Part shown: positions 10,754 through 62,483 of the stretch, in pieces | How positions within the stretch are numbered: the stretch's first letter is position 1 | How the letters are laid out: every line of letters starts with the position of its first letter | DNA from: an uncultured Verrucomicrobiota bacterium | GTDB lineage: Bacteria; Verrucomicrobiota; Kiritimatiellia; RFP12; UBA1067 | Direction of reading: 5' to 3' | NCBI GenBank assembly: GCA_946055075.1 | Contig: CAMGEN010000003.1 | Location: forward strand, 13,036 to 77,035 | Length of the DNA stretch: 64,000 bases | Program-made: the position numbers and the translations under genes | The notes under the pieces: model-generated | What the model saw: only the letters and a program-made list of their open reading frames with translations | What the model was told of the DNA's origin: nothing | The model's database searches: none

Positions 10754-11674
10754 TTATTCAAACAGCCAAGTCGACAGATAACGCTCGCCTGTATCTGGCA
10801 ACAGCGCGACGATCGTCTTGCCGGCGTACTCCGGCCGCTTCGAGAGCTCGAGCGCCGCGTAAAGCGCCGCACCGGACGAGATGCCCACCAGCAGACCCTG
10901 CTGGGCCGCCGCAGCGCGGGCCGTCTTCCCGGCATTTTCCGCCGACACCGTCAACACCTCCGTGATCAGCGACCGGTCGAGGACCTGAGGAACGAAGCCC
11001 GCGCCGATGCCCTGGATCTTGTGCGGACCCGCCTTGCCCTGCGAGAGTACCGGACTCGTATCCGGCTCGACTGCATAGAGCGCGATGTCAGGCTTCTTCT
11101 CCCGCAGGAACCTTCCCGTTCCCGTCAGCGTGCCGCCCGTGCCGACACCGGCGACGAAAGCATCGACCTTTCCGTCCGTGTCCGCCCAGATCTCCGGACC
11201 CGTCGTGATGCGGTGATAGGCCGGGTTCGCCGGATTCTCGAACTGCTGCAGGATAACGCCGCCGCGCGTCTCGGCGATCTCCTTCGCCTTGACGATGGCG
11301 CCCTTCATGCCCTCAGATCCCGGCGTGAGCACGATCTCGGCGCCATAGGCCGCGGCAAGCTTACGTCGTTCGATACTCATCGTTTCCGGCATCGTGAGGA
11401 CGAGATGATACCCCTTCACCGCTGAAACCAGCGCAAGACCGACGCCCGTATTGCCGCTCGTCGGCTCGACCAGCGTCGCCCCCGGATTCAGCACGCCGCG
11501 CCTCTCGGCATCCTCGACCATCGCAAGCGCGACGCGGTCCTTCACGCTTCCGCCGGGATTGAAGAACTCGATCTTCGCGAGCACCTTCGCACCGCCCTTG
11601 TTCAACCTGTTGGAGATCTCAACGAGAGGCGTGCCTCCCACCTTCTCAAGAATCGTCTTATCAACCTTCGCCAT
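10754..11674 (-). CDS. cysK: cysteine synthase A (O-acetylserine sulfhydrylase)
   Basis: Motifs NPGGSVKDR and TSGNTG. ATG 11674 is one codon inside the GTG-started track ORF. Confidence 0.9.
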   Translation of the reverse strand: MAKVDKTILEKVGGTPLVEISNRLNKGGAKVLAKIEFFNPGGSVKDRVALAMVEDAERRGVLNPGATLVEPTSGNTGVGLALVSAVKGYHLVLTMPETMSIERRKLAAAYGAEIVLTPGSEGMKGAIVKAKEIAETRGGVILQQFENPANPAYHRITTGPEIWADTDGKVDAFVAGVGTGGTLTGTGRFLREKKPDIALYAVEPDTSPVLSQGKAGPHKIQGIGAGFVPQVLDRSLITEVLTVSAENAGKTARAAAAQQGLLVGISSGAALYAALELSKRPEYAGKTIVALLPDTGERYLSTWLFE

Positions 11675-11728
11675 CACGAACCTCGCTTTCTCAATTTATA
11701 CACTACCATGCCGGTAGTAATGACGCGT

Positions 11729-11758
11729 ATTATAGCAAACCGACGTCTTCTATGTCAA
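11729..11758 (-). promoter_or_regulatory. candidate cysK promoter TTGACA-18-TATAAT
   Basis: Minus strand reads TTGACAtagaagacgtcggtttgcTATAAT. Confidence 0.65.
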
Positions 11759-11974
11759 CCGCCAAAGTAGAAAAAGACAAGGACGCAGAAACCACCCCGC
11801 GGGGCATTACGCGGAGGCACGGACGGACTTGTCGCCCGCGTTCACCGCTTCGACGTGTAATAGTCGAGTCGTATCTCGGCCCGGCCGTTCGTATAGCTGG
11901 TCACGCGCTGAACGGCGTAGCCGACGGATAACCGAAGCGAATTCGGAACACCGCGTCTTCCGCATTCGCCGGCA

Positions 11975-12460
11975 TCAGATGCAAAAGTCCAGCGCCTGCG
12001 CCGCCTTCGGATCTCGCTTCAGAATGGAGGAAACGGTGATCTTGGCCAGCGTCGAGGCGAAGGACCGATTGACGTCTCTCCACACCCGTCGGGCGATGCA
12101 GGTCTTGAGCCGCGGGCATTCCGCACCCGACGCCAGGCAGTCCAGAACCGCCAACTGCCCCTGCATCGTCTCGACGATCTCCAGCAGCGTGATATCCTCG
12201 GCGCTCTTCGCCAGTCGGAAACCGCCGACGTTGCCTCGGACAGACCGGACGATACCGTGCTCACGGAGCGGAATGACGATCCGGGAAAGGAACTTCACGG
12301 AGATGTTCTGCGCCGCGGCGATGGCCGCGCCCGTGCGGGGTTTTGCATCCCCCGCGTGCGCCGCCACATCCAGCACGAACCGAAGCGCGTACCGGGCCTT
12401 TGCCGAAATCTTCAGCGCCTTCTGCGAACATGCCGCACTCGACTCAACCGCTCTCTTCAT
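11975..12460 (-). CDS. Rrf2-family transcriptional regulator (CymR/IscR-like)
   Basis: Only the last 161 aa of track ORF 11975..13486 are Rrf2-like (LKISAKARYALRFVLDVA..., CLASGAECPRLKTC). ATG 12460 is preceded by GGGGGTGAA and by TGGTATAAT. Confidence 0.8.
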   Translation of the reverse strand: MKRAVESSAACSQKALKISAKARYALRFVLDVAAHAGDAKPRTGAAIAAAQNISVKFLSRIVIPLREHGIVRSVRGNVGGFRLAKSAEDITLLEIVETMQGQLAVLDCLASGAECPRLKTCIARRVWRDVNRSFASTLAKITVSSILKRDPKAAQALDFCI

Positions 12461-12502
12461 TTCACCCCCGTCATTCTGCCGATGATTATACCATATTCGG
12501 TC

Positions 12503-14761
12503 ATGTCGAAACGGCACGGTGATTTTTTTGATATAATCGGCAGAGCGTCGGACGACGACAGAACAGGAGGTTTTTTGAGAGGCAGCGAACCAGAACGCCG
12601 CGGAGGATACGATTTCGGCACCTTCCAGGGGGTCTTCACCCCCAGCATCCTCACCATCATCGGCGTGGTCATGTACCTGCGCTTCGGATGGGTGCTCGGA
12701 AACGTCGGCATAGCCGGCTCGCTCGCCCTGGTGGCAATCGGCAGCGGCATCACCTTCCTGACGGGGCTTTCGATCTCGACCCTCGCCACCAACATGCGGA
12801 TGAAAGGCGGCGGCGCGTACTTCATGCTGTCCCGCTCGCTCGGACTCGAATCTGGGGCCGCGCTCGGCATCCCCCTCGCGCTCTCCCAAGCCATCGGCGT
12901 CTCGTTCTACATCGCTGGCTTCGCCGAGGCGCTGACGCAGTCCGGCCTGCCCTTCGTCTCCGGACTCGACGTGCGCGCGGTCGGGCTCGTGACACTGTCC
13001 GTCCTCGCCCTGGTCTCGACCCTCTCGGCCGACATCGCCCTCAAATCCCAGTACTTCATCATGGCGGCGATCGGCATCTCGCTCGTCTCGTTCTTCGCCG
13101 GTTCCGCCCCGCTGCCGCCCGCCGACCCAGTCGCCGCGCCGGAGCCGCTCGGCTTCTGGCCGGTGTTCGCGGTCTTCTTCCCAGCCGTCACCGGCATCCT
13201 CTCCGGACTCGGCATGTCCGGCGATCTCAGGAACCCCGGCCGCTCCATCCCCCTCGGCACCATCGCCGCGGTGCTGACGGGTTACGTCGTCTACACGGCC
13301 GTGCCGATGGTCATGAACACGTTCGTTACGGATTCCGCCTGGCTTAGGACGGACACGATGATCATGCTGAAATGCTCCCGCTGGCCGCTGCTCGTGCTCG
13401 TCGGCGTCTGGGCCGCGACGCTGTCCAGCGCCGTCGGAAGCTTCCTCTGCGCCCCGAGGGTGCTCCAGGCCCTCGCGAGGGACCACATCCTGCCGGGCTT
13501 CCTCGGACGCGGATTCGGGGTCACCGACGATCCCCGCGTATCCTCGGCGCTCTGCTTCGGCGTCGCCGCCGCGGGAATCGCCCTCGGCGACATCAACGCG
13601 ATCGCACCGATCCTCACGATGTTCAACCTCTCGACCTATGCGTTGTTAAACTTCGCAGCCGCCGCCGAATCGCTGCTTGCCAACCCCTTCTGGCGTCCCA
13701 CCTTCCGGGTCCCGGCGCTGTTCCCGACGATCGGATTCGCCGGCTGTCTCGGCGCGATGTTCATGATCAGTCCCGGCTGGTCCATGATCGCCCTCGGCTG
13801 CGAGGCCGGCATCTACATACTGGTGAAACGGCGTCAGCTTAGGACGCAGTTTGGCGACGTGCGCACCGGACTGCTCGCCGCGCTCGTGCGCTTCGCCCTC
13901 CGCCGGCTCGCCGCCGACCGCCACGCCGAACGCAACTGGCGTCCGAACCTCCTCGTGTTCTCCCGGCTGCCGATCCACAACCTCCGCATGCTCATGCTCG
14001 CCCGCGGCATCTCCGGCGGACGCAGTTTCGTGACCCTGACGAGCATAGTCAAGGACAAGGGCGCCTCCTTCGACCGGAAGGCGCTGCAGGATGCGGTGTC
14101 GCGCACCGGCGACGGCATCAGTCTCGAGCTGATGCCGAGGATCCACGTCGCGGACGACATCTGGAGCGGCATCACGGAAACCATCCGGTACTACGGCTTC
14201 GGTCCCGTTGCCCCCAACACAGTCCTCTTCGGACTCCCCGAGCCGGAACACCTGACCGATCTCGCGGGGGCGATCAGGACGGCATCGGCGGAGAAGCGCA
14301 ACGTGCTGCTCGTCAAATCGGCGGAACCGGCGTTACCCGACGGACACCTCGACATCTGGTGGCGCGGCGGCGGCGACAACGGCGCGCTGATGCTGTCCCT
14401 CGCCGTACTTCTGCGCCGTGACGGCACCTGGAGCCGTCTGACCCCTCGCGTCAACATGCTGATCCACAACCGCACCTCCGCCGAAGCCGAGCAACAGCTT
14501 TCGGAATTCCTGGTCCGCGCCCGCATAACTTCGAAAACCCGTATTCTCGACACGGAAGCGCAACCCTTCACGCAGGTGCTGTCCAAGGCCTCGTCGGATG
14601 CTGGGTTGTCGCTAATCGGACTCCGCGCGCCCCAAAACGACGAAACCGACGCGGCTTACGCCGAATACCTCGGACACCTCGTATCCGAACTCTCGGAGGT
14701 GCCGTCCCCGGTCTTCGTGCTCGCCGCGAGCGGACAGGAGCTGATCAGGATCTTCTCCTGA
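12503..14761 (+). CDS. APC-superfamily transporter with large cytoplasmic C-terminal domain (cation-chloride cotransporter/SLC12-like)
   Basis: GTFQGVFTPSILTIIGVVMYLRFGWVLG is followed by about 12 hydrophobic segments and a ~300-aa soluble tail. Start chosen at MSKRHG. Confidence 0.75.
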   Translation: MSKRHGDFFDIIGRASDDDRTGGFLRGSEPERRGGYDFGTFQGVFTPSILTIIGVVMYLRFGWVLGNVGIAGSLALVAIGSGITFLTGLSISTLATNMRMKGGGAYFMLSRSLGLESGAALGIPLALSQAIGVSFYIAGFAEALTQSGLPFVSGLDVRAVGLVTLSVLALVSTLSADIALKSQYFIMAAIGISLVSFFAGSAPLPPADPVAAPEPLGFWPVFAVFFPAVTGILSGLGMSGDLRNPGRSIPLGTIAAVLTGYVVYTAVPMVMNTFVTDSAWLRTDTMIMLKCSRWPLLVLVGVWAATLSSAVGSFLCAPRVLQALARDHILPGFLGRGFGVTDDPRVSSALCFGVAAAGIALGDINAIAPILTMFNLSTYALLNFAAAAESLLANPFWRPTFRVPALFPTIGFAGCLGAMFMISPGWSMIALGCEAGIYILVKRRQLRTQFGDVRTGLLAALVRFALRRLAADRHAERNWRPNLLVFSRLPIHNLRMLMLARGISGGRSFVTLTSIVKDKGASFDRKALQDAVSRTGDGISLELMPRIHVADDIWSGITETIRYYGFGPVAPNTVLFGLPEPEHLTDLAGAIRTASAEKRNVLLVKSAEPALPDGHLDIWWRGGGDNGALMLSLAVLLRRDGTWSRLTPRVNMLIHNRTSAEAEQQLSEFLVRARITSKTRILDTEAQPFTQVLSKASSDAGLSLIGLRAPQNDETDAAYAEYLGHLVSELSEVPSPVFVLAASGQELIRIFS

Positions 14762-32579: not shown

Positions 32580-34637
32580 TTACTTCAATTCAAATGCCGC
32601 GGAATCGTAATCTCCGTTCAATTCGACGCCGAACCCACGGTCCATGAGTTCGGCGCCGGAGAGCTTGCAGCCCTCCGCGGCATGCAGTCTTTCGCCGCGG
32701 TTGATCTCGACGATTTCATAGGCCTTCTCTGGGTCAAGTCCGCGGCACTTCACCTGGACATCGGCTTGATATTCGCAGGAAGTTCCGAGCACGAAAACCG
32801 CGGCGTGATCCCGCTTCTCGTTCACGTACATGAGCGAAGCGTACTCATGCTCATAAGGCGAAGCGAGCCGATAGAGGTCGCCGAGCTGCACCACGGGACG
32901 GATCCGCTTGTAATCAGCGACCGCCTTCTTCGAGAACTCGATCTCCTCTCCTGACAGCTTCTCCGGAACGAGCTCGAAGCCGAGACGCGCGGTCATCGCG
33001 ACATCAAAGCGGTGCTTAAGCGGCGTGACGCGCTTCGTGGTCTGGTTCGGCACTTCCGTCACATGCGCGGCAAGCGCACAGGCGGGATAGAACAGCGATT
33101 CACCCCACTGGATGAAGATGCGCTGATACGAATCAGTATCGTCGCTCGCCCAGCATTCATCAGCGTAGCGGAGGAATCCGAAATCGACGTGTCCGCCGCC
33201 GGAAGCGCAGGCCTGGATCATCACCTGCGGATATTTCGCACGCATCGTCGCAAGCATATCGTAGAGTCCGATCGTGTAGTCATACCAGAGGTTCGGCTGA
33301 CGGTCCGCCGCGAGATAGGTTGAGCCAGGATTGGAGATGTGCTGATTGCAGTCCCACTTGATGTAGGCGAGAGAAGGCACGGATTTATAAAGTCCATCCA
33401 ACTGTTTCCACACGTGTTCGCGCACAGAGGGATTACAGAAGTCGAGCACCGTCTGCGTACCTCCGCGGCCGAGGGCCAGAGGACGTCCCTCTTCGCGTAA
33501 AAGCCACTCGGGATGCGCTTCCGCAAGCCAGCTTTTGGTGTTGACCATCTCCGGCTCTACCCAGAAGCCGAAGCCGAGTCCACGCTTCGCGGCGGCATCG
33601 GCGAGTCCGGAGAGTCCGTGGGGAAGGACCTCTGGATTGACCTCCCAGTCTCCGAGTCCCGCGGTATCGCGATTTTTCGCGTCGCGCGCGTACTTGCCGT
33701 GTCCGAACCAGCCGTCGTCCAGGACGAACATCTCGCCGCCCATGTCCTTCACGCCGTCCATCATCTTAGCGAGAATGTCCTCAGTGATGTCGAAGCCGGC
33801 CCCTTCCCAGTGATTGAGGAGGATGGGTCTGAGCGCCTCGCCATGCGGCATCAGGTGCTTCCTGGCCCAGCGGTGGTACTGGCGCGAAACCTCGCCGCGG
33901 CCCTTGTCAGACCTGACGATGATCGCCTTAGGAGAGACGAAGGTCTTACCCTGATCAAGCGTGTAAGGTCCGGTCGTCATGTCGACGCCAGCCATCACCG
34001 AAACCTCCTTGCCATTCCAATTACGGCGAATGCGGCGGCTCGTCGTGCCGGTCCATTCGAGCGCCACACCCAGGAACTCGCCATGTTCCTCGAAATAGTC
34101 TTTGTCGGCAAGACCGCAGCACTCGCCGTCCCGGAACGAAAGCATAATCGCGGCATTCGACTCCCATGCGTCGCGAGTACCTTCGCAGGACCTGAGCTCG
34201 ACGATCTGACCCGGCGCCACCGGCGCCACATGCAGATTCGCCTCGTAAGCCCAGGTGCCAGTGAGCGAGTGCACCTCGACCGTCCCCTTATCGGTCGTGA
34301 TCGTCGTCGCAAAGGAATCGGCGTGCAACAGCTTCACCGGACCGTTCTCGTCGTTCTTAACCTCGATCCAGGTCTCTACCGCGTCGCAGTCGTTCCAGGT
34401 ACGGATGCGCCGCGTCACCATCAGCGGCTGATACTCGTCCTGGAGCACGATCGTGTGGAGTTCGCCGTCAACGAGCGTCATGGCGGACCTCGAAGACTCC
34501 TTCAATCTCAACGTCACCGAGCCGTCGGCATGGATGACCTGGAGTCCCGCATGCTTCACTATCCGGTTCTGGTCCGACGGCACCAGTTGTCCGAAGAAAA
34601 GGTATCCCGCCATCGCGATCTGTAACGCAGTATTCAT
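32580..34637 (-). CDS. alpha-galactosidase, GH36
   Basis: Motifs YIKWDCNQ and CASGGGHVD. ATG 34637 is preceded by GGGAGGG. The track start 34652 is a TTG inside the SD. Confidence 0.9.
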   Translation of the reverse strand: MNTALQIAMAGYLFFGQLVPSDQNRIVKHAGLQVIHADGSVTLRLKESSRSAMTLVDGELHTIVLQDEYQPLMVTRRIRTWNDCDAVETWIEVKNDENGPVKLLHADSFATTITTDKGTVEVHSLTGTWAYEANLHVAPVAPGQIVELRSCEGTRDAWESNAAIMLSFRDGECCGLADKDYFEEHGEFLGVALEWTGTTSRRIRRNWNGKEVSVMAGVDMTTGPYTLDQGKTFVSPKAIIVRSDKGRGEVSRQYHRWARKHLMPHGEALRPILLNHWEGAGFDITEDILAKMMDGVKDMGGEMFVLDDGWFGHGKYARDAKNRDTAGLGDWEVNPEVLPHGLSGLADAAAKRGLGFGFWVEPEMVNTKSWLAEAHPEWLLREEGRPLALGRGGTQTVLDFCNPSVREHVWKQLDGLYKSVPSLAYIKWDCNQHISNPGSTYLAADRQPNLWYDYTIGLYDMLATMRAKYPQVMIQACASGGGHVDFGFLRYADECWASDDTDSYQRIFIQWGESLFYPACALAAHVTEVPNQTTKRVTPLKHRFDVAMTARLGFELVPEKLSGEEIEFSKKAVADYKRIRPVVQLGDLYRLASPYEHEYASLMYVNEKRDHAAVFVLGTSCEYQADVQVKCRGLDPEKAYEIVEINRGERLHAAEGCKLSGAELMDRGFGVELNGDYDSAAFELK

Positions 34638-34654
34638 CTTTTTCCCTCCCAATT

Positions 34655-34730
34655 ACCTTCTGTTTGTCCGCACTCAACTTCGCTGCAAACTGCTTCAACT
34701 GCTTCGCCGCTTCCTTCTGCTACTTGCGCG
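34655..34730 (-). repeat. purine-rich degenerate repeat in the GH36 5' leader
   Basis: Minus strand reads GCAGAAGGAAGCGGCGAAGCAGTTGAAGCAGTTTGCAGCGAAGTTGAGTGCGGA. Confidence 0.5.
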
Positions 34731-34756
34731 TCATGGCCGTATTATATCATCTTTAA

Positions 34757-35494
34757 CTACCGCAGAAAATGTTTCAGGTTCGATTCCGGATATTCAACGA
34801 GTTCACGAATTGAGTTGGTTATGTATTGGTAAAGGGAAGGATGCGCCATCGGGTCTTTAACGGAACGCAACACCGCCAACCGCTCACGACTGTACTTGTA
34901 TCTATGATCCGCCGCGCACATTCGCCAATCCATATGCTCAAAACTCCGGTTAGCCGTTTTCGCATAAACCAAAGCATTTGAAACGCCATACTCCCGAACA
35001 TCCGATGGTACAACGCGGTCACACACCGACCAGAAAAGGTCCCCGCAAACCTCGGACCTCACATCCTGAGACATGTTTGTCATACACAATAAGCCGTTGA
35101 CACAATCGATTGAATTTGACGTCACGCCGCAAATCCGCATTATCCCGCGGGCAGCTGGCACCGCCAATTCCGCATCCATTAAATACCCCTGCAAAAAAGC
35201 CAGGTCGTTAGTACTTCCATACCATCCAACATTGTTCAAAAGATTATACTTTGCCGTCCCGCTCGCAGAGGCTATAAGCTCCTTCGCTAGCCGAACAAAC
35301 CTATTGGTATCCCCCTCGCATTTCCGCATGGCTACTTTATGTTGCCATTCAGCATACTCCACACCGTCGATGACACTGCATTCGGCCAAAATGTGCCGTT
35401 TCACATCCGCATCGGTGAAATTCTTCGCTATGGCTGTAATCAATGACATAACGATCGTCAAAGCAATACACTTCTTGATTTCATTCATCATCAA
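34757..35494 (-). CDS. hypothetical N-terminally anchored alpha-helical (HEAT/PBS-like repeat) protein
   Basis: Hydrophobic N-terminus CIALTIVMSLITAI and a HEAT-like segment LNNVGWYGSTNDLAFLQGYLMDAELAVPAARGI. AT-rich. The track start is TTG followed by ATG ATG. Confidence 0.55.
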   Translation of the reverse strand: MMMNEIKKCIALTIVMSLITAIAKNFTDADVKRHILAECSVIDGVEYAEWQHKVAMRKCEGDTNRFVRLAKELIASASGTAKYNLLNNVGWYGSTNDLAFLQGYLMDAELAVPAARGIMRICGVTSNSIDCVNGLLCMTNMSQDVRSEVCGDLFWSVCDRVVPSDVREYGVSNALVYAKTANRSFEHMDWRMCAADHRYKYSRERLAVLRSVKDPMAHPSLYQYITNSIRELVEYPESNLKHFLR

Positions 35495-35527
35495 TCCTCA
35501 CTCATGCGGAAAATTTGCAGTGCCAAA

Positions 35528-36169
35528 TCAGTAAAACTTGAGCGGGCGGTCGATGACTCTCAAGAATTCAGTTTCTATTTCAGAGCGCTCCGCAGCGTCT
35601 TTCAGAAAACCCAATCTTATCATATCATTGATAAACTTCTCAACGAAATCCACTCGACGATTGCGAAGCTCCTCTTTGCTCCATAAAGCTTCCGCATCCA
35701 TCTTCGCAATATACGTCAGCCATGTATGCGTCATTTCCTTGACCGGCGCATTCATTTCATGCAATTTTACAAACACCTCCACCGAAACATTGCTCAACAG
35801 TCCCCGCAAGCGATCTCGCGGCACGCAATCCAAACCTTCCATCGACCCAAGCTTGTCCAACAAGAACCTGTAGCTAATATACCTCTCCTGCGCGGGTTCT
35901 AACGAATCAATCTGTGAGTACAGATCAAAGACCTCATGAAAATCCGATGGCGTATCACCTATTAACATTGCGCGAATTTTCGGCATTGCCTTTTCAACAA
36001 CCGAGAATCCTTGCGTTGAAACTATCTCATAATGTATATTGCATTCATCTCTCTTGGATACTTCATCGCCATTCTCATTGCAACCAGCGACTAAAAATCC
36101 GCAGAACAACCCCATCAGTGCCATCCGGGTTAAACTGTCAGTTTCCGCGCTATTCGGCTTCCGCTCCAT
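35528..36169 (-). CDS. hypothetical lipoprotein
   Basis: Start at MERKPN (36169), preceded by GGGGAGG. Lipobox is MALMGLFCGFLVAGC. Overlaps the stop of the upstream large ORF by 20 nt. AT-rich. Confidence 0.6.
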   Translation of the reverse strand: MERKPNSAETDSLTRMALMGLFCGFLVAGCNENGDEVSKRDECNIHYEIVSTQGFSVVEKAMPKIRAMLIGDTPSDFHEVFDLYSQIDSLEPAQERYISYRFLLDKLGSMEGLDCVPRDRLRGLLSNVSVEVFVKLHEMNAPVKEMTHTWLTYIAKMDAEALWSKEELRNRRVDFVEKFINDMIRLGFLKDAAERSEIETEFLRVIDRPLKFY

Positions 36170-38264
36170 CCTTGTACACCTCCCCAGTGATTTTCCTATA
36201 TGCTTTGTGTCCCAATTTACTAACACTTAGATCGCCGTTTGCAAATATTGTAAACGTCTGTCTCGTATCGCTGGCGAAAACACCAACAGGACTCATTACC
36301 GAACCCAATGAATTACTTGTCCAGCCAAACGGGATCTTCCATATCCGCTCTCCACCCATCCATCCAAATAGCTCATCGTCTGTAAATTCTCCATTCTGTT
36401 TGATCCTTGGAAGAACACCAACGAACGCTGCGCTGTCATAACCATCCGTTGAATTATCCTCATTCACATAATGCCAACGACCGGCACCAGCGCTTATATT
36501 ATGCGTGGCAGAAAGTCTGTTCGTCGGGAAATACTGAAAATAACCTGTTGGCGGAATCTCGTCGCCGCATGGCACTTCTTCAACAAGCAAACCGTTGAAC
36601 GAAACTGTCTTTGGCAATATCCTATACTTCTGATTAAGTTCAACCCCACCGCAAGATCCAGCCGGAACAGATAAACCGCGAGCCACTACATCATATCCTT
36701 CTATTCCACTTGGCGTCAATACTGATATCATTGGTTCGTACACAACTTCACCTAACGACAATCGCAAGAAGTGATTCGTCTCTGCAACTCCCCACCGTAT
36801 GATATTGTACGCAGAAAGCGATGATGTCATTTTCGCGTCTGAAATTTCAACTTCCATCTCGGAGTGACATGAAGACACTTCCAATATGAATGGCTCATTA
36901 ATTCCATATTCATGGCGATACAAACTCTCATTCTCAAATGCAATGTTTATCACTTTCAATTCAACACGCACAGAAGTCAACGTATCCGAATCGGTAAGCG
37001 CGGTACCGCCGTTGCGAGGCGTGAAGGTTCCAGTCGCGACGATGTCGTCTGCGGCTGTGCTCGGATCCTCGCCTTCATAGCACACGTCAAACGCGACCTT
37101 CTGCATCGGCGGAACGAAGGTGCGTTCCGGCAGCGATCCTTCGACCGCGGTCAGCCTGGAAGCGTTCGCGAGAGAGAACTCCGCAAAGCCGCCGGCGTAA
37201 CCGCCGTGAACTAGGCACGACAATGTCGTCTGCGTCGACCGCCGCGGCACTGTGCTCGTCGGATTGTTATTGTAGGCATCCTCAAATATTACTGCGGGGG
37301 CGGAGAAGCCGACCGTGATTCCTTCCGCATAGGGCCCATCATCCACCTGCGGATGCAGAGATTCGTCATTATGGTTCGGACAGTCGCAGTACCCGCCAAG
37401 GCATGGCAGCGAATACCCTTCATACTGATACGCACCGGCAGCGTAACATCCATTGCAAGTGCACTTCCCGGAATGAGCATACCAGAACTCATTGCCATTT
37501 CCGGTAATCGAGCAACAGGAATTCGTCCAGACGAACGCACCGCCAAGGTTCGACGGACGGACTCGCATCAGAAAGCTGAGCCCATTACCTTCTAACGCGG
37601 TGACACGAACCGGGCGAACGACCGAAAACGCGCATTCGGAGCCATTGCTCACGACTGCTTCCGTGTCAGACACGCCGACACAACTGATGGCGGTATTTGC
37701 ATTCGCGACATAGCCCTTCCCCATCAGCAGCTTCACGCGATTGGTCTCGCCGGGCACCGCCCAGAAGTCGGGATCAGGGAGATCGGAAGCACCATCACCA
37801 GTGAAGACGATGTGCGCGTGATCATCCGCGACGACGTCGATGGTGTAGTAGGCGTTCGTGTTCGAGGTCGGTGGCAAAGTCGGCTCCTCATAACGATTAT
37901 ACACCGTCGGATCACTGCCGAATCCAATCGTGTACTTCGTCGTCGTTCCCGCGACTGGAATTCTATATCCGGGCGGCGGCAGAATCGAATACGCTTGTGA
38001 CGGATCAAACGGCGAAACCATATTGGAGCAGGTGACCCCGAGCGGATAATACTGATCGTCAATCACGCCGTCACCGTCGGAATCCGCGGGAAAATCCAAA
38101 CCGAAGAAAGCCTGATTAAAAAACGAGGTCGGAAACTGCGACATATCGAATTGCACCGTCAGCGAAGATTCGTTTTCATAGTCATGCTCGTAGACGTTCG
38201 TCCATACCGGGTGCTCAAGATTGTCTGCGGCTTGGTGGCGCAGACATGTACTGTCACACCGCAC
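36150..38264 (-). CDS. large Cys-rich hypothetical protein with calcium-binding-like DSDGDGVIDD motif and a compositionally distinct C-terminal ~280 aa
   Basis: 704-aa ORF with a GTG start and no signal peptide in this frame. Cys-rich stretch KCTCNGCYAAG...CLGGYCDCPNH. I recognise no family. Confidence 0.6.
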   Translation of the reverse strand: MRCDSTCLRHQAADNLEHPVWTNVYEHDYENESSLTVQFDMSQFPTSFFNQAFFGLDFPADSDGDGVIDDQYYPLGVTCSNMVSPFDPSQAYSILPPPGYRIPVAGTTTKYTIGFGSDPTVYNRYEEPTLPPTSNTNAYYTIDVVADDHAHIVFTGDGASDLPDPDFWAVPGETNRVKLLMGKGYVANANTAISCVGVSDTEAVVSNGSECAFSVVRPVRVTALEGNGLSFLMRVRPSNLGGAFVWTNSCCSITGNGNEFWYAHSGKCTCNGCYAAGAYQYEGYSLPCLGGYCDCPNHNDESLHPQVDDGPYAEGITVGFSAPAVIFEDAYNNNPTSTVPRRSTQTTLSCLVHGGYAGGFAEFSLANASRLTAVEGSLPERTFVPPMQKVAFDVCYEGEDPSTAADDIVATGTFTPRNGGTALTDSDTLTSVRVELKVINIAFENESLYRHEYGINEPFILEVSSCHSEMEVEISDAKMTSSLSAYNIIRWGVAETNHFLRLSLGEVVYEPMISVLTPSGIEGYDVVARGLSVPAGSCGGVELNQKYRILPKTVSFNGLLVEEVPCGDEIPPTGYFQYFPTNRLSATHNISAGAGRWHYVNEDNSTDGYDSAAFVGVLPRIKQNGEFTDDELFGWMGGERIWKIPFGWTSNSLGSVMSPVGVFASDTRQTFTIFANGDLSVSKLGHKAYRKITGEVYKDGAEAE

Positions 38265-38413
38265 ATCAACATGAACAGCACAAATGAGATCGCGGTGCAG
38301 CGGCGGCTGGTGCGCCTTAATTCATCTGCGGCAGCCAACGCCAGTTGCCAGACCAATGCCACGGCAAATAACAGCGCCACAGACAGGATAATGGCTTGGC
38401 GGACCATGCTCAT
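38159..38413 (-). CDS. small hydrophobic ORF, either an independent membrane peptide or the frameshifted signal-peptide-bearing N-terminus of the 704-aa ORF
   Basis: MSMVRQAIILSVALLFAVALVWQLALAAA looks like a signal peptide or anchor. It overlaps ORF 36150..38264 by 106 nt in a different frame. Confidence 0.3.
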   Translation of the reverse strand: MSMVRQAIILSVALLFAVALVWQLALAAADELRRTSRRCTAISFVLFMLMCGVTVHVCATKPQTILSTRYGRTSTSMTMKTNLR

Positions 38414-38414
38414 A

Positions 38415-39254
38415 TCAAACAGAAATTGTTTGTAGATATTCTATCACATCCGTAAAGAAGTTTTCAGGCGTCGAGGCACCGGAGGTGACGCCGAGCACGG
38501 AAACGCCCGAGAAATCGATGGCCTTCACCTCGTCCAACGTTCCGGCGCGGAACACCTTAGCGCATTTCGCCACTTCGCAGAGACGACGGGTATTGGACGA
38601 ATTGACACTCCCGAGGACGAGTAGCGCATCGCCGACGAACGCCTTCACCGCATCCTGCCTCGCCTTGGTCGCGTTACAGACCTCGGCCATCGTCTCAACC
38701 TCGTATTCCCCACGAAGCTTCTCAACGACATCCGCCACCTCGTCTGCATTCATCGTCGTCTGAGAGACGACACCCAAAGTGAGTTGAGAAGTTGAGAAGT
38801 TGCGGGTTGAGGGGTTATAGACGACCGAATCAAGGACTTCGCCGGTGATGCCCTTCACTTCGGCATGATCGGGATTGCCAATAACGACGACCTGGCGCCC
38901 ACTAGACGCGAACTCCTTCGCGGCCTTATGCACCTTCTCGACAAACGGACACGTCGCGTCCACCACCATGAGCTTCCGCTCCTCGGCCTGAGCACGTACC
39001 GCAGGCGAGACGCCATGGGCAGAAAACAGCACCGTCGCCCCTTCCGGGACCTCATTCAGCGATTCAACGAAAACCATCCCGAGACGCTTCAAGTCGTTCA
39101 CGACGAGTTCGTTATGCACAAGTTCGTGAAGGCAGTAGACGGGTGCGGGGTGCTGGGTGCATGGTGCAGAGGGAGAGAGCAGAGACTGGGCTTTGCGCAG
39201 GGCGTTAGTGACTCCGGCGCAAAAACCGTGGGGCTCAATGACTTGAATACGCAT
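38415..39254 (-). CDS. ispH: 4-hydroxy-3-methylbut-2-enyl diphosphate reductase
   Basis: Start at MRIQVIEPHGFCAGV (39254). LytB family (HELVHN, SAHG, SQTT). The track start 39320 is a GTG inside the heptamer array. Confidence 0.9.
   Translation of the reverse strand: MRIQVIEPHGFCAGVTNALRKAQSLLSPSAPCTQHPAPVYCLHELVHNELVVNDLKRLGMVFVESLNEVPEGATVLFSAHGVSPAVRAQAEERKLMVVDATCPFVEKVHKAAKEFASSGRQVVVIGNPDHAEVKGITGEVLDSVVYNPSTRNFSTSQLTLGVVSQTTMNADEVADVVEKLRGEYEVETMAEVCNATKARQDAVKAFVGDALLVLGSVNSSNTRRLCEVAKCAKVFRAGTLDEVKAIDFSGVSVLGVTSGASTPENFFTDVIEYLQTISV
38779..38816 (+). repeat. GTTGAGA/GTTGAGG array inside ispH (in frame, pyrimidine strand is sense)
   Basis: AGTGAGTTGAGAAGTTGAGAAGTTGCGGGTTGAGGGGTT. 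Encodes NPSTRNFSTSQLT. Confidence 0.8.
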
Positions 39255-39262
39255 CAGCAGAC

Positions 39263-39336
39263 TTCCGCAACTCTTCACCCCGCACCCTGCACTCCGCACC
39301 CTGCACCCTGCACTCCGCACTCTTCACTTCTCTTAG
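39263..39336 (-). repeat. heptamer array (CACCCYG/CACTCCG units on the plus strand) with termini like those of the 44-nt element, at the mazG-ispH junction
   Basis: CTTCCGCAACTCTTC ACCCCG CACCCTG CACTCCG CACCCTG CACCCTG CACTCCG CACTCTT CACTTCT CTTAGC. Confidence 0.85.
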
Positions 39337-40925: not shown

Positions 40926-42167
40926 TTACTTAGCGATGCGTTTCTTACGGGGCTTGGGCTGCCCAATCTCCGAAAGGATCTTGCGGAAGCTACCCTTACG
41001 GACATTGAACGGCTTGCCGCCCTTGATACGCGGGAATTCGCACGCACGGATAACCGCGCTCGCGTTCTCGTCAGGACCAACGACGCCGGATACTCCCGTC
41101 ATGGCGCACTCGACAGCCTTGCGCGCACACTTCTCGATGAGCCCAAGATCCTTCTTGTTCGGAGCCGCCGCACGGGCGAAATAACCAGACTTGAAGACCT
41201 GCACCTTCTCGGCCTTGAGAAGCTCCCCGAAACGCTTACCGATGTACTGTCCGACATTGACCTTGTCAAGCCGCGGATGACCGAACGCATCAACCGGCAC
41301 CTCTTCGCCGCGCTTCTTCATCTCCTTAATGATGTCGTTGACACCCGCGCCTTCGGAAACGAAAATGTTGACGCTGTCGACCTTATCCATGATCGCGAGA
41401 AGACGCTTCGCCTCGGCCTTGAAGTCGATCTTGCACTCCGGAACGTATACGGCATGGACATCCTGACGAGCAAGAGTCTGATTGAACTCAGGAAGGAAGA
41501 GCCCCTTCGACTCCATCGACTTGAGCATCTTGCGATAATACTGCGCGGTCTTATAGGTAAGCCAACCGCAATTACGCCCCATGACCTCGTGAATCGTAAG
41601 CGCACGAGGATTCGCACTGTTCTCCTTGACGACGTTCATGAAGAACTTCGCACCCTCTTCAGCCGCCGTCCAGGCGCCGAGAGACTGCTTGATCGGATAA
41701 ACGTCGTTATCGATGGTCTTCGGAAGCCCGACGACGATCAACGGATAATTGTTCGTCGAAAGATAAGCCGCAAGATCGGCCGCCGTGGTGTTCGTGTCGT
41801 CACCGCCGATAGTATGAAGAACGTCAACCCCGTCCTTGACAAGCTGATCGGCCGCAACCTTAAGCGGATCCTCACCTTCCTTGACAAGCCCGCGCTTGAC
41901 GCAATCCTTAACATTCGTGAGCTTCACACGGCTGTTACCGATCGGAGAACCGCCATGCTTGGTGAGCACAAGCGCGTGCTTACGTACCTCGGGCGTAACC
42001 GGAATCGAATCACCCTTCAAAAGACCCATATATCCATTGACATAGCCGATCATTTCGACATTCGGCGCCTTCTTGTTGTACTCGTCAATCAGGAACCCAA
42101 TCGAACTGGAGAGACACGGAGCGAGACCGCCCGCGGTAAGAAACGCAACCTTCTTCACTTCTTTCAT
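40926..42167 (-). CDS. pfp: pyrophosphate-dependent phosphofructokinase
   Basis: 413 aa, PFK family, with FLTAGGLAPC, TIGGDDT and PKTIDND motifs. Confidence 0.85.
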   Translation of the reverse strand: MKEVKKVAFLTAGGLAPCLSSSIGFLIDEYNKKAPNVEMIGYVNGYMGLLKGDSIPVTPEVRKHALVLTKHGGSPIGNSRVKLTNVKDCVKRGLVKEGEDPLKVAADQLVKDGVDVLHTIGGDDTNTTAADLAAYLSTNNYPLIVVGLPKTIDNDVYPIKQSLGAWTAAEEGAKFFMNVVKENSANPRALTIHEVMGRNCGWLTYKTAQYYRKMLKSMESKGLFLPEFNQTLARQDVHAVYVPECKIDFKAEAKRLLAIMDKVDSVNIFVSEGAGVNDIIKEMKKRGEEVPVDAFGHPRLDKVNVGQYIGKRFGELLKAEKVQVFKSGYFARAAAPNKKDLGLIEKCARKAVECAMTGVSGVVGPDENASAVIRACEFPRIKGGKPFNVRKGSFRKILSEIGQPKPRKKRIAK

Positions 42168-42273
42168 TTTATTTTTTCTTTCACTTAATTATCAACAAAT
42201 CTTCTGCCCGCTATTCGTTGTCAACAGCAAGTAATCCTGTCACTGCTCCGCTGACAACCAATAACCTCGGCCT

Positions 42274-42732
42274 TCATATCGCCTTCACGACATTGACCAT
42301 TTCAATCGCCGAAACCATCGCCGAGAAACCCTTGTTGCCCTGCTTGGTGCCACAGCGCTCGACCGCCTGCTCAAGATTCTCGGCCGCGACAATACCGTCC
42401 AACACCGGAACGCCGGTCTTAAGCGAAATTTTCGTAAACGCCTCGGATGTCGCAGATTCAATAAGCATAGCATGAGGCGTAGCACCCTGCACAACCGCAC
42501 CCAGCGCAACAACGGCATCGTAATTCTTCTCCGCAAGCTTCAGCGCCGCAAGCGGAAGCTCGTATGCGCCAGGAACCTTGACTAGTGTGAGATTCTTCTC
42601 GTCGCCGCCATGCCGAACAAACGCATCAACCGCACCCTTAACGAGCTGTTCGGTGAGAAAACTATTGAATCGGCTGACAATTACCGCGACCTTCATGCTT
42701 TTCGCGGAAAGTTCACCATTGATTTCTTTCAT
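42274..42732 (-). CDS. ribH: 6,7-dimethyl-8-ribityllumazine synthase
   Basis: Start at MKEINGELSAKSMKVAVIVSRFNSF (42732). Lumazine synthase family. Confidence 0.9.
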   Translation of the reverse strand: MKEINGELSAKSMKVAVIVSRFNSFLTEQLVKGAVDAFVRHGGDEKNLTLVKVPGAYELPLAALKLAEKNYDAVVALGAVVQGATPHAMLIESATSEAFTKISLKTGVPVLDGIVAAENLEQAVERCGTKQGNKGFSAMVSAIEMVNVVKAI

Positions 42733-42783
42733 TGCCTTCTTTCCCTTTTTTCCAACAAAACGGCGCACATTTTATCAAATAAG

Positions 42784-43401
42784 TCAGTTTCTGTCAATCA
42801 TCCCACGCTGCCGCGCCAATGATACCGCTTCCGCACGATCTCCCGCTCCCAATTTGAAGAAAGCACGTTTAAGATGCATTTTCACGGAGTTTTCGCTGAT
42901 CCCCAGCTTTTCACCGATTTCGCGATTGCCAAGACCCTTACCAACTTCGGAAATCACTTCTGCCTCACGTGGGGACAGTCCCTTCATACCTTTGCGAGTT
43001 TCATAGATCTTCCGCACTTCTTCCGTCATATATACATCGCCGGACATCGCCGAACGAATAGCGGCAATAATGATCTCGACTGGACTTTCCTTCATCACAT
43101 AGCCGAGCGCACCCTCTTCAATGGACCGATACACGTCCTCAATGGTATCTGATGTCGTCAACATCACAACCCTAGCCTTCGGATTGGTTGCCAATATTTC
43201 CTTAAGAACTTCAATACCGTTCTCATCCGGCATACGCACATCCAACAATACCACATCCGGCTTAGTCTGCGCCACAAACTGCGCCGCACCCTTACCACCG
43301 GCAAAATCTCCGGCAAAACTCAACTCCGAATCGGACTCAATAATATACTTGAGCCCAGTCCTCACGACCACATGGTCATCAATTACCGCAACCTTAATCA
43401 T
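42784..43401 (-). CDS. NarL/FixJ-type response regulator (REC plus LuxR HTH); no kinase adjacent
   Basis: Receiver Asp in VVLLDVRMPD. C-terminal LSPREAEVISEVGKGLGNREIGEKLGISENSVKMH. Confidence 0.85.
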   Translation of the reverse strand: MIKVAVIDDHVVVRTGLKYIIESDSELSFAGDFAGGKGAAQFVAQTKPDVVLLDVRMPDENGIEVLKEILATNPKARVVMLTTSDTIEDVYRSIEEGALGYVMKESPVEIIIAAIRSAMSGDVYMTEEVRKIYETRKGMKGLSPREAEVISEVGKGLGNREIGEKLGISENSVKMHLKRAFFKLGAGDRAEAVSLARQRGMIDRN

Positions 43402-43439
43402 GCGGCTATTATATCATAAAGTTAGAGTATTTTGTCAAA

Positions 43440-44099
43440 TTAAACCACGCTTAACAAGTCGGCGAGAGATTCCATTCGCAGCGCATAACTAGACTCTCCC
43501 AGCGAACCGAAGCCATAGGCGCAGAACGCGCCCTTCACACCGGCGTTAGCCGCACAATCAAGATCAGTCCAGCTGTCACCGACCATCCAGTCCGCCGGCG
43601 TAAGCGTATGCCCGAGCCTTGCAGCACACTCCAGAAGCGGTTTCGCCGAAGGCTTCTTCTCGTCACAATCCCCGCCGGCGACCACCGCGGACCCGAACAG
43701 CTTATCAAGCTTAAAATGTTCGAGAATCGCCTTAGTAGCGAAATTAGGCTTCGAGGTATTAACCCCGAGCGGACACCCGCGACGCGCAAGTTCATGCAAC
43801 GTCTCCTCCACCCCAGGATAAAGCGCACAATGCTCCAGCATATGCTCGGCATAATGCGATCGGAATATCTCCCACAGGCGATTGGTTATCTCCTCCCGCG
43901 GCAAAGATGCCGCGTCTGCAAACGGCTCTGGAATCGCATGCGCAAGCAGATACTTCGCACCCTGTCCCACACACGCCAGCACCGCCTCCTGCGAAATCTC
44001 CGAAAGTCCGAGATCCCGACGCGTATGATTGACCGTCGCGGCGAGATCCGCACGCGAATCGATTATCGTACCGTCCATATCAAAAAAGAATGCTGGCAT
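43440..44099 (-). CDS. HAD phosphatase (phosphoglycolate phosphatase-like)
   Basis: FFFDMDGTIIDS motif, with GDSWTD in motif IV. Confidence 0.8.
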   Translation of the reverse strand: MPAFFFDMDGTIIDSRADLAATVNHTRRDLGLSEISQEAVLACVGQGAKYLLAHAIPEPFADAASLPREEITNRLWEIFRSHYAEHMLEHCALYPGVEETLHELARRGCPLGVNTSKPNFATKAILEHFKLDKLFGSAVVAGGDCDEKKPSAKPLLECAARLGHTLTPADWMVGDSWTDLDCAANAGVKGAFCAYGFGSLGESSYALRMESLADLLSVV

Positions 44100-60682: not shown

Positions 60683-60813
60683 AGCCGGCTTCACCCTTCC
60701 CGCGACCAGCATCTCCACACCCGCCATCGTACCCGCACCGCTGCATAGCACTGCAAGATCTCCTCGCCCAACTTGGTGAGATGTTTAAACAAACCATCAT
60801 GAAAGCATCAGCA

Positions 60814-61155
60814 TCAAGGCGCGACAAGCATAACACCAAAAACAAACCAGCAGATTAAGCTAATAACACCGTCAATTATATTGCCGTAAAGAGCGAACAT
60901 AAAGCCGCGCTCCTTACCAATTAATGCCCCTACCAGCAACCCCAAAACAGGAAACATCATGCCCAAAACAAAGCACAGCCCTTCATGACAATCGTTTTTC
61001 TGTTGCCCAACATTAACAGAAGATATTGGATGTGTTTTACGTTGCCGAACCTTGACATAAAACTCATTACTACAATGAGGACAAAAAGTTGTCGAGCCAA
61101 TATACGAATCATCGACATCTACAATCGCACTGCATGATGGACATACTGTTCTCAC
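60814..61155 (-). CDS. zinc-ribbon membrane protein
   Basis: CPSC...CPHC ribbon followed by two hydrophobic helices. Low GC. Confidence 0.6.
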   Translation of the reverse strand: MRTVCPSCSAIVDVDDSYIGSTTFCPHCSNEFYVKVRQRKTHPISSVNVGQQKNDCHEGLCFVLGMMFPVLGLLVGALIGKERGFMFALYGNIIDGVISLICWFVFGVMLVAP

Positions 61156-61194
61156 ATCTACCTCCTTGTTGCATCTACTCGCACACCATTACTT

Positions 61195-61794
61195 TCACTT
61201 TTCATCCTTATCTTTCGCGTTTTTCTTTGCTTTTAAGTCAATCCTCTCAACTGTCGTTTTTTTCTCCAACGGAGATCCTTCCAATGCTGTTTGAACCCAA
61301 CATTTCTTATCGTCAAATTTCAGTTTTTTGTACTTAGTATCACTTGTAGTCTTTCTCTTCAAAACATTTCCTTCTTCATCTTGGATTTCCACAATCAGTC
61401 CATCAATTTGATATCCAGAATTAAGATCTATACCATACTGGCCCCTCGCATTATCTTTTATCGCAATCACCGAACATGTCTCAACCTTAAATTTATCCTT
61501 TTTGCTCTTTGCGGGAGTACACGCGCATTCCGCTGAATCTTGAATCATAAACATACCTTTAGACGAAGCAGAGCTAACAACAGTTCCAACAACCACTTTA
61601 TATGAATTCGTCTCATTCGCCAAAACACTTACTGTCACCTCATATTCTCGTGATTTTAATTCTGTCTTTGAAAACTCTGACTTCTCCGTTGTCACGTTGT
61701 TTGATTTAACGAATTTTAGTTGCACCGTCATTGCATGTGCCGCAACCGCTAAAAGAAGCAATGCTGCCACCATAGAGTAACGTAACACCTTCAT
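61195..61794 (-). CDS. secreted Lys-rich hypothetical protein
   Basis: Start at MKVLRYSMVAALLLLAVAAHA (61794), preceded by GGGAGG. About 32% G+C in a counted line. Confidence 0.6.
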   Translation of the reverse strand: MKVLRYSMVAALLLLAVAAHAMTVQLKFVKSNNVTTEKSEFSKTELKSREYEVTVSVLANETNSYKVVVGTVVSSASSKGMFMIQDSAECACTPAKSKKDKFKVETCSVIAIKDNARGQYGIDLNSGYQIDGLIVEIQDEEGNVLKRKTTSDTKYKKLKFDDKKCWVQTALEGSPLEKKTTVERIDLKAKKNAKDKDEK

Positions 61795-62171
61795 ATGCAC
61801 CTCCCATCCTAATGAATTTGCCCGACAAAGTATTTCACCGGAATACACTTTTGCGGGCAAAGAAAAAGCGCACCCCTTAGCAGATCTCGAACGAGGCACG
61901 ACCAAGCGCCCAACTAGAAATCTGAAAGAGGTGCGCAAAGTGGGGGCATACAATTAGCCCGATACACTCTGCACAACCATCTAGCCAGCTTCCAGTTTGA
62001 AATTTTGGTCGTTTCGTTCGAAGCCAGATACACAGTTACGCGTATCACCTTGTTTTCACAAGGATTTCCGATGCGGAGATATTATCCCCGCGTATCAAAG
62101 ATCAAGTCATCGGCAAGCGATTCTCACCACCCGCCTCTGGCAAATTAAATTATATCAAAATTCATCGCCGC

Positions 62172-62228: not shown

Positions 62229-62483
62229 ATGAACGACGCCCGAATGACAATCCGACTCCCCGGCGACACCTTGGCGTTTGCCCAGGGGTACGCCGCCAAA
62301 TGCAACATTTCCCTCACCGATCTCGTTGTCAGATATTTCGAACGGTTGCGCGAATCGCTAACGCTACAGGATGAAGACGCATCGCCCGCGCTTTGCGCCC
62401 TGACAGGCGCTATCAAATCCGACATTTCGGATGCTGACGAGCGTGCGCTGTATCGAAAACATCTTTCGGAGAAGCACACGTGA
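62229..62483 (+). CDS. VapB-like antitoxin
   Basis: 84 aa. A 4-nt overlap with the downstream PIN gene. Same layout as 46760..47026. Confidence 0.65.
   Translation: MNDARMTIRLPGDTLAFAQGYAAKCNISLTDLVVRYFERLRESLTLQDEDASPALCALTGAIKSDISDADERALYRKHLSEKHT

Follow-up and report, generated by a model that had tools for sequence, protein, structure and literature searches.

The polymorphic effector-immunity systems described in the literature include Rhs, contact-dependent inhibition (CDI) and MafB (PMC9086364, PMC4287609). In Rhs/YD-repeat proteins and CdiA-CT/CdiI pairs, a large conserved N-terminal part is followed, at a conserved junction, by a variable C-terminal region of ~250–300 aa, and a cognate small gene directly downstream co-varies with this region. 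Orphan modules of C-terminal region and partner are stacked further downstream, the block is lower in GC than the core, and alleles differ between near-identical strains (PMC9086364). Here we describe a locus of an uncultured Verrucomicrobiota bacterium (Kiritimatiellia) that is alike in all these respects. It lies at positions 34,655 to 38,413 of a 64,000-nucleotide stretch of DNA (assembly GCA_946055075.1, contig CAMGEN010000003.1, positions 13,036 to 77,035; hereafter the window), and comprises a large gene with a variable C-terminal domain (CT), a lipoprotein gene and a gene for a 245-aa protein (p245). Related loci compared with the window are named L001–L048, and homologous large proteins P0001, P0002, P0013 and so on.

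The family to which this locus belongs differs from the Rhs and CDI loci in lacking YD and haemagglutinin repeats, VENN and PxxxxDPxGL motifs, and genes for CdiB and the type VI and type VII secretion systems (T6SS, T7SS). Searches with Pfam and NCBIfam found no CdiB transporter, filamentous haemagglutinin repeats or VENN-type junction, and no type V secretion system (T5SS), T6SS, T7SS, Rhs shell or PrsW module; only an N-terminal hairpin and an [AG]x[QT]K..TN motif were seen. Whereas the CTs of Rhs and CDI have varied nuclease, deaminase and pore-former folds, those found here are one homologous immunoglobulin (Ig)-like domain on one scaffold, and the partners carry export signals (39 of 40 with an N-terminal hydrophobic segment). 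Neisseria MafB/MafI (PMC4287609) is alike in having a signal-peptide-dependent polymorphic protein with a variable CT and no recognised dedicated secretion machine, and immunity-type genes and orphan cassettes arrayed downstream. MafB differs in its DUF1020 N-terminal domain, its cytoplasm-acting toxin CTs and its cytoplasmic immunity; here the scaffold is unrelated and both products are predicted to be extracytoplasmic. The periplasmic T6SS pairs Tae/Tai and Tle/Tli (bioRxiv 10.1101/2023.03.28.534661) also place a periplasmic or lipoprotein partner beside the effector and have orphan immunity arrays, but their effectors are amidases and lipases delivered by T6SS, whereas the loci described here have no linked T6SS, their common CT lacks an enzyme fold and only a paralogous protease CT is enzyme-like. 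Myxococcus TraA shares the Cys-rich stalk, a variable recognition domain and strain-level polymorphism; its variable domain, however, is N-terminal, PA14-like and homotypic, and has no hypervariable partner genes or orphans. The TSP3 surface proteins CglD/MtsD gave weak NCBIfam matches over the TSP3 repeats only, far below the cut-offs. No Pfam, NCBIfam, PADLOC or PDB family covering the scaffold, the CT or the partners was found. What is new is not the principle of organisation but the components, the phylum in which they occur and the seeming absence of a known delivery machine.

Exchange of the C-terminal domain together with the next gene

L001, a near-identical strain, is syntenic with the window (PFK, a 221-aa gene, mazG, ispH, the large gene, the small genes, GH36 and HAD). 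The two are 98.4% identical in DNA upstream (ispH and beyond) and 97.4% identical from 36040 through GH36, and have no DNA similarity over 36973–36040. Identity within the scaffold, the conserved part of the large gene ahead of the CT, is a mosaic of 0.87–1.0 that goes down to 0.63–0.74 in the last ~200 nt, which encode the last Ig-like domain. At the swap site L001 carries a different CT (CT-B, with 28% protein identity to the allele of the window, CT-A) and an extra 277-aa membrane-anchored protein, and its lipoprotein has another signal peptide on the same mature body. The window's allele and the abutting lipoprotein gene are also present in L002, from another sample, and the allele is found in L048 too; in other samples it is intact and 98% conserved.

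L042 has unrelated genomic surroundings, and its DNA is ~75% identical to the window in the scaffold, 87–97% in CT-A and 93–99% in the lipoprotein gene. Because CT-A and the lipoprotein gene co-occur in L002 and L042 despite the ~75% identity of the L042 scaffold, we concluded that they move as one unit. Other pairs of loci gave the same picture: L008 and L013 have identities of 0.90 in the CT and 0.81 in the partner on scaffolds of 0.50 identity, and L013/L021 and L005/L008 have scaffolds of 0.98 identity, CTs of 0.34–0.40 and unrelated partners. Scaffold identity is decoupled from the CT-partner module in both directions. The locus is very probably an exchange cassette of CT and partner, accompanied in this strain by an orphan partner and a disrupted main gene.

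The initial annotation of the window had reported a drop in G+C between GH36 and ispH, with a break at ~36990–37000 inside the open reading frame (ORF) 36150..38264. Its base counts (25/60 at both 35521 and 36601, 39/60 at 33541) are exact, and a two-segment likelihood scan of the ORF placed the change point at 36998 (support 36951–37014; log-likelihood gain 16), with GC of 0.442 versus 0.567 on either side. The DNA similarity of the window to L001, L037 and L043 stops at 36973, within this support interval. Residues ~1–420 had been described as host-like in composition and the last ~280 as AT-rich, which agrees with a fall of the third-position GC content (GC3) from 0.642 for aa 1–430 to 0.407 for aa 431–704 of this 704-aa ORF; the two downstream genes, described as AT-rich too, both lie inside the best-fitting low-GC island (Table 1). 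GC is 0.43–0.50 over ~34600–37000, 0.55–0.65 in the flanks and 0.592 in the 64-kb window overall. The same island is present in L001, whose CT and small genes are also low in GC. Mean GC in 32 related loci falls from 0.580 in the scaffold to 0.495 in the CT and 0.482 in the partner (Wilcoxon p ~1e-6), and CT and partner are low in ~30 of the 32; given that the same drop recurs across these loci, the mid-gene change in the window is not a chance fluctuation. Rhs core extensions have the same pattern of low-GC CTs. A scan of promoters, terminators and direct or inverted repeats for the marks of mobile elements gave nothing above background, and no mobile-element repeats were found beside the island.

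Pairing with partner genes and orphan modules

Nearly every large gene of the family is followed by a gene for a protein of 215–330 aa, at most 20 nt away or overlapping, and the CT subtype tracks the family of this next gene (33 loci compared). In 23 of 25 loci the partner family matches that of the locus with the most similar CT, and CT identity is 0.50 within partner families versus 0.30 between them (permutation p ~5e-4). In the window the next gene is that of the lipoprotein, whose LVAGC lipobox and Shine-Dalgarno-preceded start at 36169 were confirmed as first annotated: GGGGAGG stands ahead of the start, and the overlap with the stop of the large ORF is 20 nt, as in L042. The lipoprotein accompanies CT-A in both L002 and L042, and in L004 and L007 the gene right after the large gene encodes a distant relative of it. 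Since CT and next gene co-vary and are exchanged together across loci, we regard the lipoprotein as the cognate partner of CT-A. On the scaffold side the junction carries the motif LTSVxVEL. The lipoprotein family has two alternative N-termini, both lipobox-bearing, depending on the upstream gene: MERKxN..LVAGC after CT-A (window 36040–36169) and MAGKRNMLCW..LLAAGC after the 277-aa gene (L001 13948–14098). The right-hand recombination junction therefore lies ~44 codons into the partner gene.

The partners fall into at least 13–18 clusters that are mutually unrelated in sequence, and ~10 of the 40 products have a lipobox. A comparison of three partner families by hhalign revealed no hidden homology (probabilities <10%), and profile searches of PDB sequences with three partner families gave nothing meaningful; the 213-aa lipoprotein had no match in Pfam, NCBIfam, PADLOC or PDB, and p245, labelled HEAT-like in the initial annotation, had no Pfam or PDB sequence match. 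The window has no member of the 277-aa family, which is the partner type met most often. In L037 a 518-aa gene (10986–12542) directly 3' of the large gene is the best-scoring match to the profile of the 277-aa family (E 3.6e-146), and, at ~2x the usual length of that family, it looks like a duplicated or fused partner.

The gene for p245 was identified as an orphan. It has 84% DNA identity to the partner gene of L039/L040, which lies directly 3' of P0013-type paralogues, and the similarity to the L039 partner begins only past the signal peptide. In these paralogues the CT is replaced by a Big_2 domain and a reprolysin-like zincin with the motif HEIGHMFGLVD, a combination that might plausibly serve as an enzyme weapon. 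Of the two small genes on whose tight linkage the initial annotation had relied, the immediate downstream one is tightly linked and co-varies with the CT, and p245 is an orphan of the metalloprotease-tipped type. What had been described as an N-terminal anchor of p245 is not an obvious one and looks like a cleavable signal peptide (..TAIA before KN).

Orphan modules, which had not been foreseen, exist elsewhere in the family. In L045 five partner-type genes, p245-family members included, stand in a row after a protease-type CT; in L046 a fragment of a protease CT lies amid partner-type genes, the p245 family included; L009 has, besides one more partner of the 277 family, a second, truncated CT copy accompanied by its own partner; and in L037 a 76-nt intergenic remnant of the 3' end of a p245-type gene was found. 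The p245-family gene is broken in L043, L044 and L047. The simplest account is a layered history, in which a protease-type module left p245 behind and the window now carries the module of CT-A and lipoprotein; in strains of the L001 type, again most simply, CT-B and the 277-aa gene were placed ahead of the lipoprotein gene and made it an orphan. The ratio of nonsynonymous to synonymous substitutions (dN/dS) is 0.11 for CT-A, 0.2 for the lipoprotein gene and 0.12–0.24 for the 245-aa gene where intact, and because of this purifying selection we consider all three to be maintained genes.

The family is confined to Kiritimatiellae and related metagenome-assembled genomes from gut or rumen, with several copies per genome located in unrelated housekeeping contexts; no other family member or partner gene was found elsewhere in the 64-kb window. 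Genes of the type II secretion system/type IV pilus (T2SS/T4P) type occur within a few kb of two family loci (L038 1–1548, L046 3341–5032; T2SSF twice, and T2SSE with an MshEN domain), too sparsely for linkage, though they may offer a route of export. As a yardstick we took polymorphic toxin systems in the sense of Zhang, Aravind and colleagues (2012). By that yardstick we found a CT that differs between near-identical strains at a fixed junction (window/L001, L013/L021 and L005/L008), an immediate downstream cognate gene that co-varies with the CT, and orphan cassettes downstream (L009, L045, L046, the L037 remnant, p245 in the window and the lipoprotein in L001). A toxin domain shared among delivery scaffolds was not found, 28 of 28 full-length representatives being on one scaffold. 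Relatives share the N-terminal part and differ in their C-termini and downstream genes, as the initial annotation had anticipated, and since they swap the CT with the next gene and GC drops at the junction, the architecture that it had proposed, that of a polymorphic toxin-immunity-like locus, holds. The toxin nature of the product does not follow: the common CT is a tandem Ig-like domain with no toxin match. It has, on the other hand, invariant R, H, E and K residues, and a paralogous CT is a reprolysin-like zincin with HEIGH.

The large protein and its C-terminal domain

Intact members of the family have 850–1100 aa and consist of an N-terminal hydrophobic hairpin, TSP3 repeats, Ig-like domains, a Cys cluster and a ~265-aa all-beta CT. 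In the AlphaFold2 model of P0001, the mean predicted local distance difference test score (pLDDT) is 72 and is high in the C-terminal half. The model has N-terminal helices at 2–38 and 41–59 followed by a disordered linker, beta-sandwich domains broken up by disordered TSP3 repeats, the Cys cluster, a confident Ig-like domain at ~625–750 and a confident C-terminal domain at 760–1016. All homologues begin with two hydrophobic stretches with a basic loop between them, and then the conserved [AG]x[QT]K..TN motif; the small-x-small residues ahead of [QT]K appear to resemble a signal-peptidase site. The dense Cys cluster noted in the window is real and conserved in the family, with eight Cys, six of them conserved at ≥90%. 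TSP3 repeats (PF18884; calcium-binding DxDxDGxxDxxD) were detected in P0022 (3.7e-20), P0048 and P0015; TSP3 is a repeat type and no indication of function. When the three products of the window, the 277-aa partner and the intact homologues were searched against Pfam, NCBIfam and PADLOC, the only matches were to the TSP3 repeats of the intact homologues; the large gene of the window, with its chimeric TSP3 remnant, has no Pfam match. A profile search of PDB sequences with the large-protein family gave nothing meaningful. Whole-chain Foldseek of the P0001 model returned C3, A2M, PAD, PrgB and E. coli ECAM at template modelling scores (TM) of ~0.1, and these matches therefore reflect generic arrays of Ig or macroglobulin (MG) domains and carry no information on the CT.

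CT-A modelled alone is all-beta with two sandwich subdomains (pLDDT 91.4; predicted TM score, pTM, 0.87). Foldseek against PDB and the BFVD viral models gave weak matches only, all to tandem Ig/FN3 domains (NCAM, VCAM, BTN, InvE and Big_2). An exhaustive search of 1.84 billion proteins found the CT in 294 representative clusters, always at the extreme C-terminus. It is present in most family members, and CT-A is a divergent allele of it; the initial annotation had taken this part for a foreign module of another kind, which it is not; it occurs only on this scaffold. The polar residues R15, H16, E22 and K248 (CT numbering) are invariant in the family, and H153 and D175 are conserved at ≥90%; CT-A retains the invariant R, H, E and K.

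Disruption of the large gene in this strain

The initial annotation had treated the 704-aa ORF as a whole gene. It is a partial one, whose true 5' end lies in the detached 84-aa ORF upstream. Its closest homologue, P0001, is 98% identical and has 1016 aa; another, P0002, has 1033 aa. Residues 1–62 of the 84-aa ORF contain the paired hydrophobic N-terminal helices, the basic loop and a ..CATKPQT motif; beyond residue 62 the reading frame changes and runs into a stop after 22 codons. In the intact allele (L001, L002) GCCGCAGACAA occurs twice, 217 bp apart, as direct repeats, and the window retains one copy, the loss of 217 bp having shifted the frame. A second deletion, of 570 bp and in frame, starts in a TSP3 repeat and takes out TSP3 repeats and one beta domain (P0001 residues ~190–376). 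Its junction falls between DSDGDGV and IDD, so that the DSDGDGVIDD motif, although present as first annotated, is no intact calcium-binding-like element but the chimeric scar of this deletion. The 175 bp between the two scars (38057–38231) are 87–89% identical to L001/L002, with 98–99.7% on either side, and this segment may date from the deletions, as the trace of a recombination event with a diverged paralogue.

Both deletions are also present in the independent assembly L048 (sample ERZ11474004; 3 mismatches to the window in 11,842 bp), and we therefore consider them a real feature of the strain. Assembly artefacts were rejected as an explanation, the junction homologies being just 11 nt and 4 nt and L048 being identical there. 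The remaining 704-aa product has lost its export signal through the 217-bp frameshift, and the large protein is most likely non-functional in this strain, while both partner genes are intact. Loss of the large gene with retention of the partners is the familiar ‘immune but unarmed’ state of toxin-immunity loci.

Gene arrangement and other features of the window

Every gene in the window between 32.5 and 40 kb is on the minus strand, in the order mazG, ispH, 84-aa ORF, 704-aa ORF, lipoprotein gene, 245-aa gene and GH36 along the direction of transcription. The features of the locus are collected in Table 1.

Table 1 Coordinates of the locus and its surroundings in the window
Feature	Position	Strand	Remarks
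GH36	32580–34652	minus	
Low-GC island	34620..37000		GC 0.458 vs 0.576 around; CT-coding end of large gene, lipoprotein gene and 245-aa gene
Orphan partner gene p245, 245 aa	34757–35494	minus	Signal peptide; family found directly after metalloprotease-tipped P0013-type paralogues
Lipoprotein gene, 213 aa	35528–36169	minus	LVAGC lipobox; cognate partner of CT-A
Variable C-terminal domain, allele CT-A (aa ~431–704)	36150..36972	minus	Two modelled beta-sandwich subdomains; low GC
Conserved scaffold part of 704-aa ORF (aa 1–430)	36973..38264	minus	Beta-sandwich domains, Cys cluster (aa ~250–295), last Ig-like domain; host-like GC
Scar of 570-bp in-frame deletion	38057..38076	minus	GTGA microhomology; from comparison with L001 and L002
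Detached 5' fragment, 84-aa ORF	38159..38413	minus	Residues 1–62 match N-termini of intact P0001 and P0002
Scar of 217-bp frameshifting deletion	38221..38231	minus	One copy left of 11-nt repeat GCCGCAGACAA
ispH	38415–39320	minus	

An imperfect tandem repeat with units of 7, 14 or 21 nt (21-nt consensus CACCCCGCACCCTGCACTCCG) was found at 39264–39328 in the mazG-ispH interval; it translates to ‘GCGVQGAG’ and ‘RSAGCRV’ peptide repeats in the overlapping ORF ends, and L001 has the same peptide repeats. At 42000–43500, a region of GC 0.46–0.50 spans the genes for DMRL synthase and a response regulator, and since synteny there is conserved in L001 and L048, this is probably gene-specific composition. 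A second low-GC patch (0.41) at 60800–62000 contains genes on the minus strand for a 113-aa protein with a zinc ribbon and transmembrane segments (60814–61155) and a 252-aa Lys-rich protein with a signal-like segment (61195–61953), and may be another accessory islet; beyond it, a 134-aa ORF on the plus strand (62480–62884) has, judged by eye, a PIN/VapC-type look.

Possible functions of the locus

The modular exchange, the co-variation of CT and partner, the orphans, the base composition and the gene disruption are observed. We read the locus as one of a polymorphic system of two-gene cassettes that occurs only in Kiritimatiellae of gut and rumen, and give an even chance to CT and partner being an effector-immunity pair; for the harm, its neutralisation and its delivery, we infer the following course. 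The large protein would be exported and would present the CT of ~265 aa on an Ig-like stalk, behind the N-terminal hairpin, TSP3 repeats and Cys cluster, and the product of the next gene (~215–330 aa) would face the periplasm. CT and partner are exchanged jointly by recombination, with one junction at the scaffold end (..LTSVxVEL) and a second inside or beyond the partner gene, and displaced partners remain downstream as orphans. The CT would act on the envelope of competing cells, or on the producer's own periplasm in transit, the partner would neutralise it through specific binding, and orphan partners would protect against the alleles of neighbours. The mutually unrelated exported partners, the retained orphans and the protease tip point to such an effector neutralised by a periplasmic partner.

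Several results weigh against an effector-immunity pair. Among the PDB and viral models, the CT had no toxin or enzyme match in the Foldseek search that the initial annotation had proposed, and its best matches were weak (E ~5e-4, TM 0.2–0.33). Classical toxin domains are common to several delivery scaffolds, whereas all 28 full-length CT-bearing representatives carry the same scaffold, and this restriction, together with the Ig-like fold, speaks for a role in binding or recognition. The partners of these uniformly homologous CT alleles are unrelated to one another, which is unusual for cognate immunity. For reaching another diderm cell, the N-terminal hairpin is the only export feature of the large protein; no secretion genes of types T5, T6 or T7, Rhs/haemagglutinin repeats or known pre-toxin domains were matched by Pfam or NCBIfam, no conserved neighbour genes were found across the family loci, and no literature on such a system in Kiritimatiellae or the phylum was found. 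We only tentatively propose, as possible rather than probable, an undescribed conflict or allorecognition system restricted to Kiritimatiellae, in which a non-enzymatic tandem-Ig warhead would bind an envelope target, periplasmic partners with fast turnover and a wide range of unrelated folds would neutralise it, and a new N-terminal hairpin signal would serve its export without a known contact-dependent machine.

A rival reading is a polymorphic recognition pair, in which the Ig-like CT would be a binding tip and the envelope-displayed partner its cognate ligand; matching alleles would give self or kin adhesion or tether the large protein, and strain discrimination would drive the diversity, in conceptual likeness to Myxococcus TraA or Dictyostelium TgrB1/TgrC1. 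The resemblance of the CT to tandem Ig adhesion modules (NCAM, VCAM and the invasin InvE), its confinement to the tip of this one scaffold, its strict co-variation with the partner, and the Cys-rich stalk and TSP3 repeats, which are features that surface adhesion proteins typically have, all favour this, and the variable-tip adhesin that the initial annotation had named as an alternative is, as far as fold goes, preferred by the Ig-like beta-sandwich modelled at pLDDT 91. However, known recognition ligands are homologous variants and the partner families here are mutually unrelated, orphan partner arrays and decaying orphans have no obvious role in recognition, a paralogue has a zinc protease tip with its own partner family, and the partners are kept here though the large gene is broken; we judge a recognition pair unlikely. 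Selection by phages or host immunity on a variable surface protein, with the CT as an exposed epitope, the downstream gene as an allele-matched accessory (chaperone, export helper or anchor) and no bacterial antagonism, would account for the Ig-like tip, the multi-copy paralogues in one genome, the constant 5' part with a variable 3' part swapped by recombination, and the frequent inactivation of individual copies. Accessory factors should then be homologous from one allele to the next, though, and the partners are not; the orphan arrays are left unexplained, and a CT dN/dS of 0.11 between recent relatives gives no sign of ongoing positive selection at that time scale. We consider this account improbable.

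It is very improbable that the large protein is a periplasmic guard like bacterial alpha-2-macroglobulin, an anchored MG/Ig-like chain with a partner enzyme or target protecting the envelope. The whole-chain matches do include complement C3 and E. coli ECAM, and the N-terminus resembles a membrane anchor, but a TM of ~0.1 reflects generic Ig arrays, no profile match to PDB sequences was obtained, and strain-level polymorphism and orphans are foreign to that family. The alpha-2-macroglobulin reading was rejected, since the large protein has no CxEQ thioester motif. We find it hardly credible that the island is an ordinary AT-rich patch, horizontally acquired or decaying, with an accidental mid-gene break left by one insertion or pseudogene drift. 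The disrupted large gene and the lack of named domains in the three products would fit such a patch; on the other side, ~30 of 32 loci have their break at this very domain boundary, purifying selection acts on CT-A, the lipoprotein and p245, other samples carry the CT allele intact and with 98% conservation, and the island has no flanking mobile-element repeats. A random patch was rejected on the purifying selection and the recurrence across the family.

Implications for Kiritimatiellae

Kiritimatiellae are common polysaccharide degraders of gut and rumen that have barely been cultured, and we found no account of a system for antagonism or kin discrimination in these bacteria. The locus family has all the population-genetic signs of a conflict system, namely cassette exchange, cognate pairs, orphan arrays and low GC. 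If the CT is harmful and the partner protective, a new scaffold, delivery route and binding-type effector would be added to the polymorphic toxin repertoire, and competition in gut communities could be followed at strain level with the alleles as markers. Should the pair serve in recognition instead, bacteria would have in it a counterpart to heterotypic allorecognition loci. In both cases, the pairs of CT and partner are a ready-made set of co-evolving, specific protein-protein interfaces.

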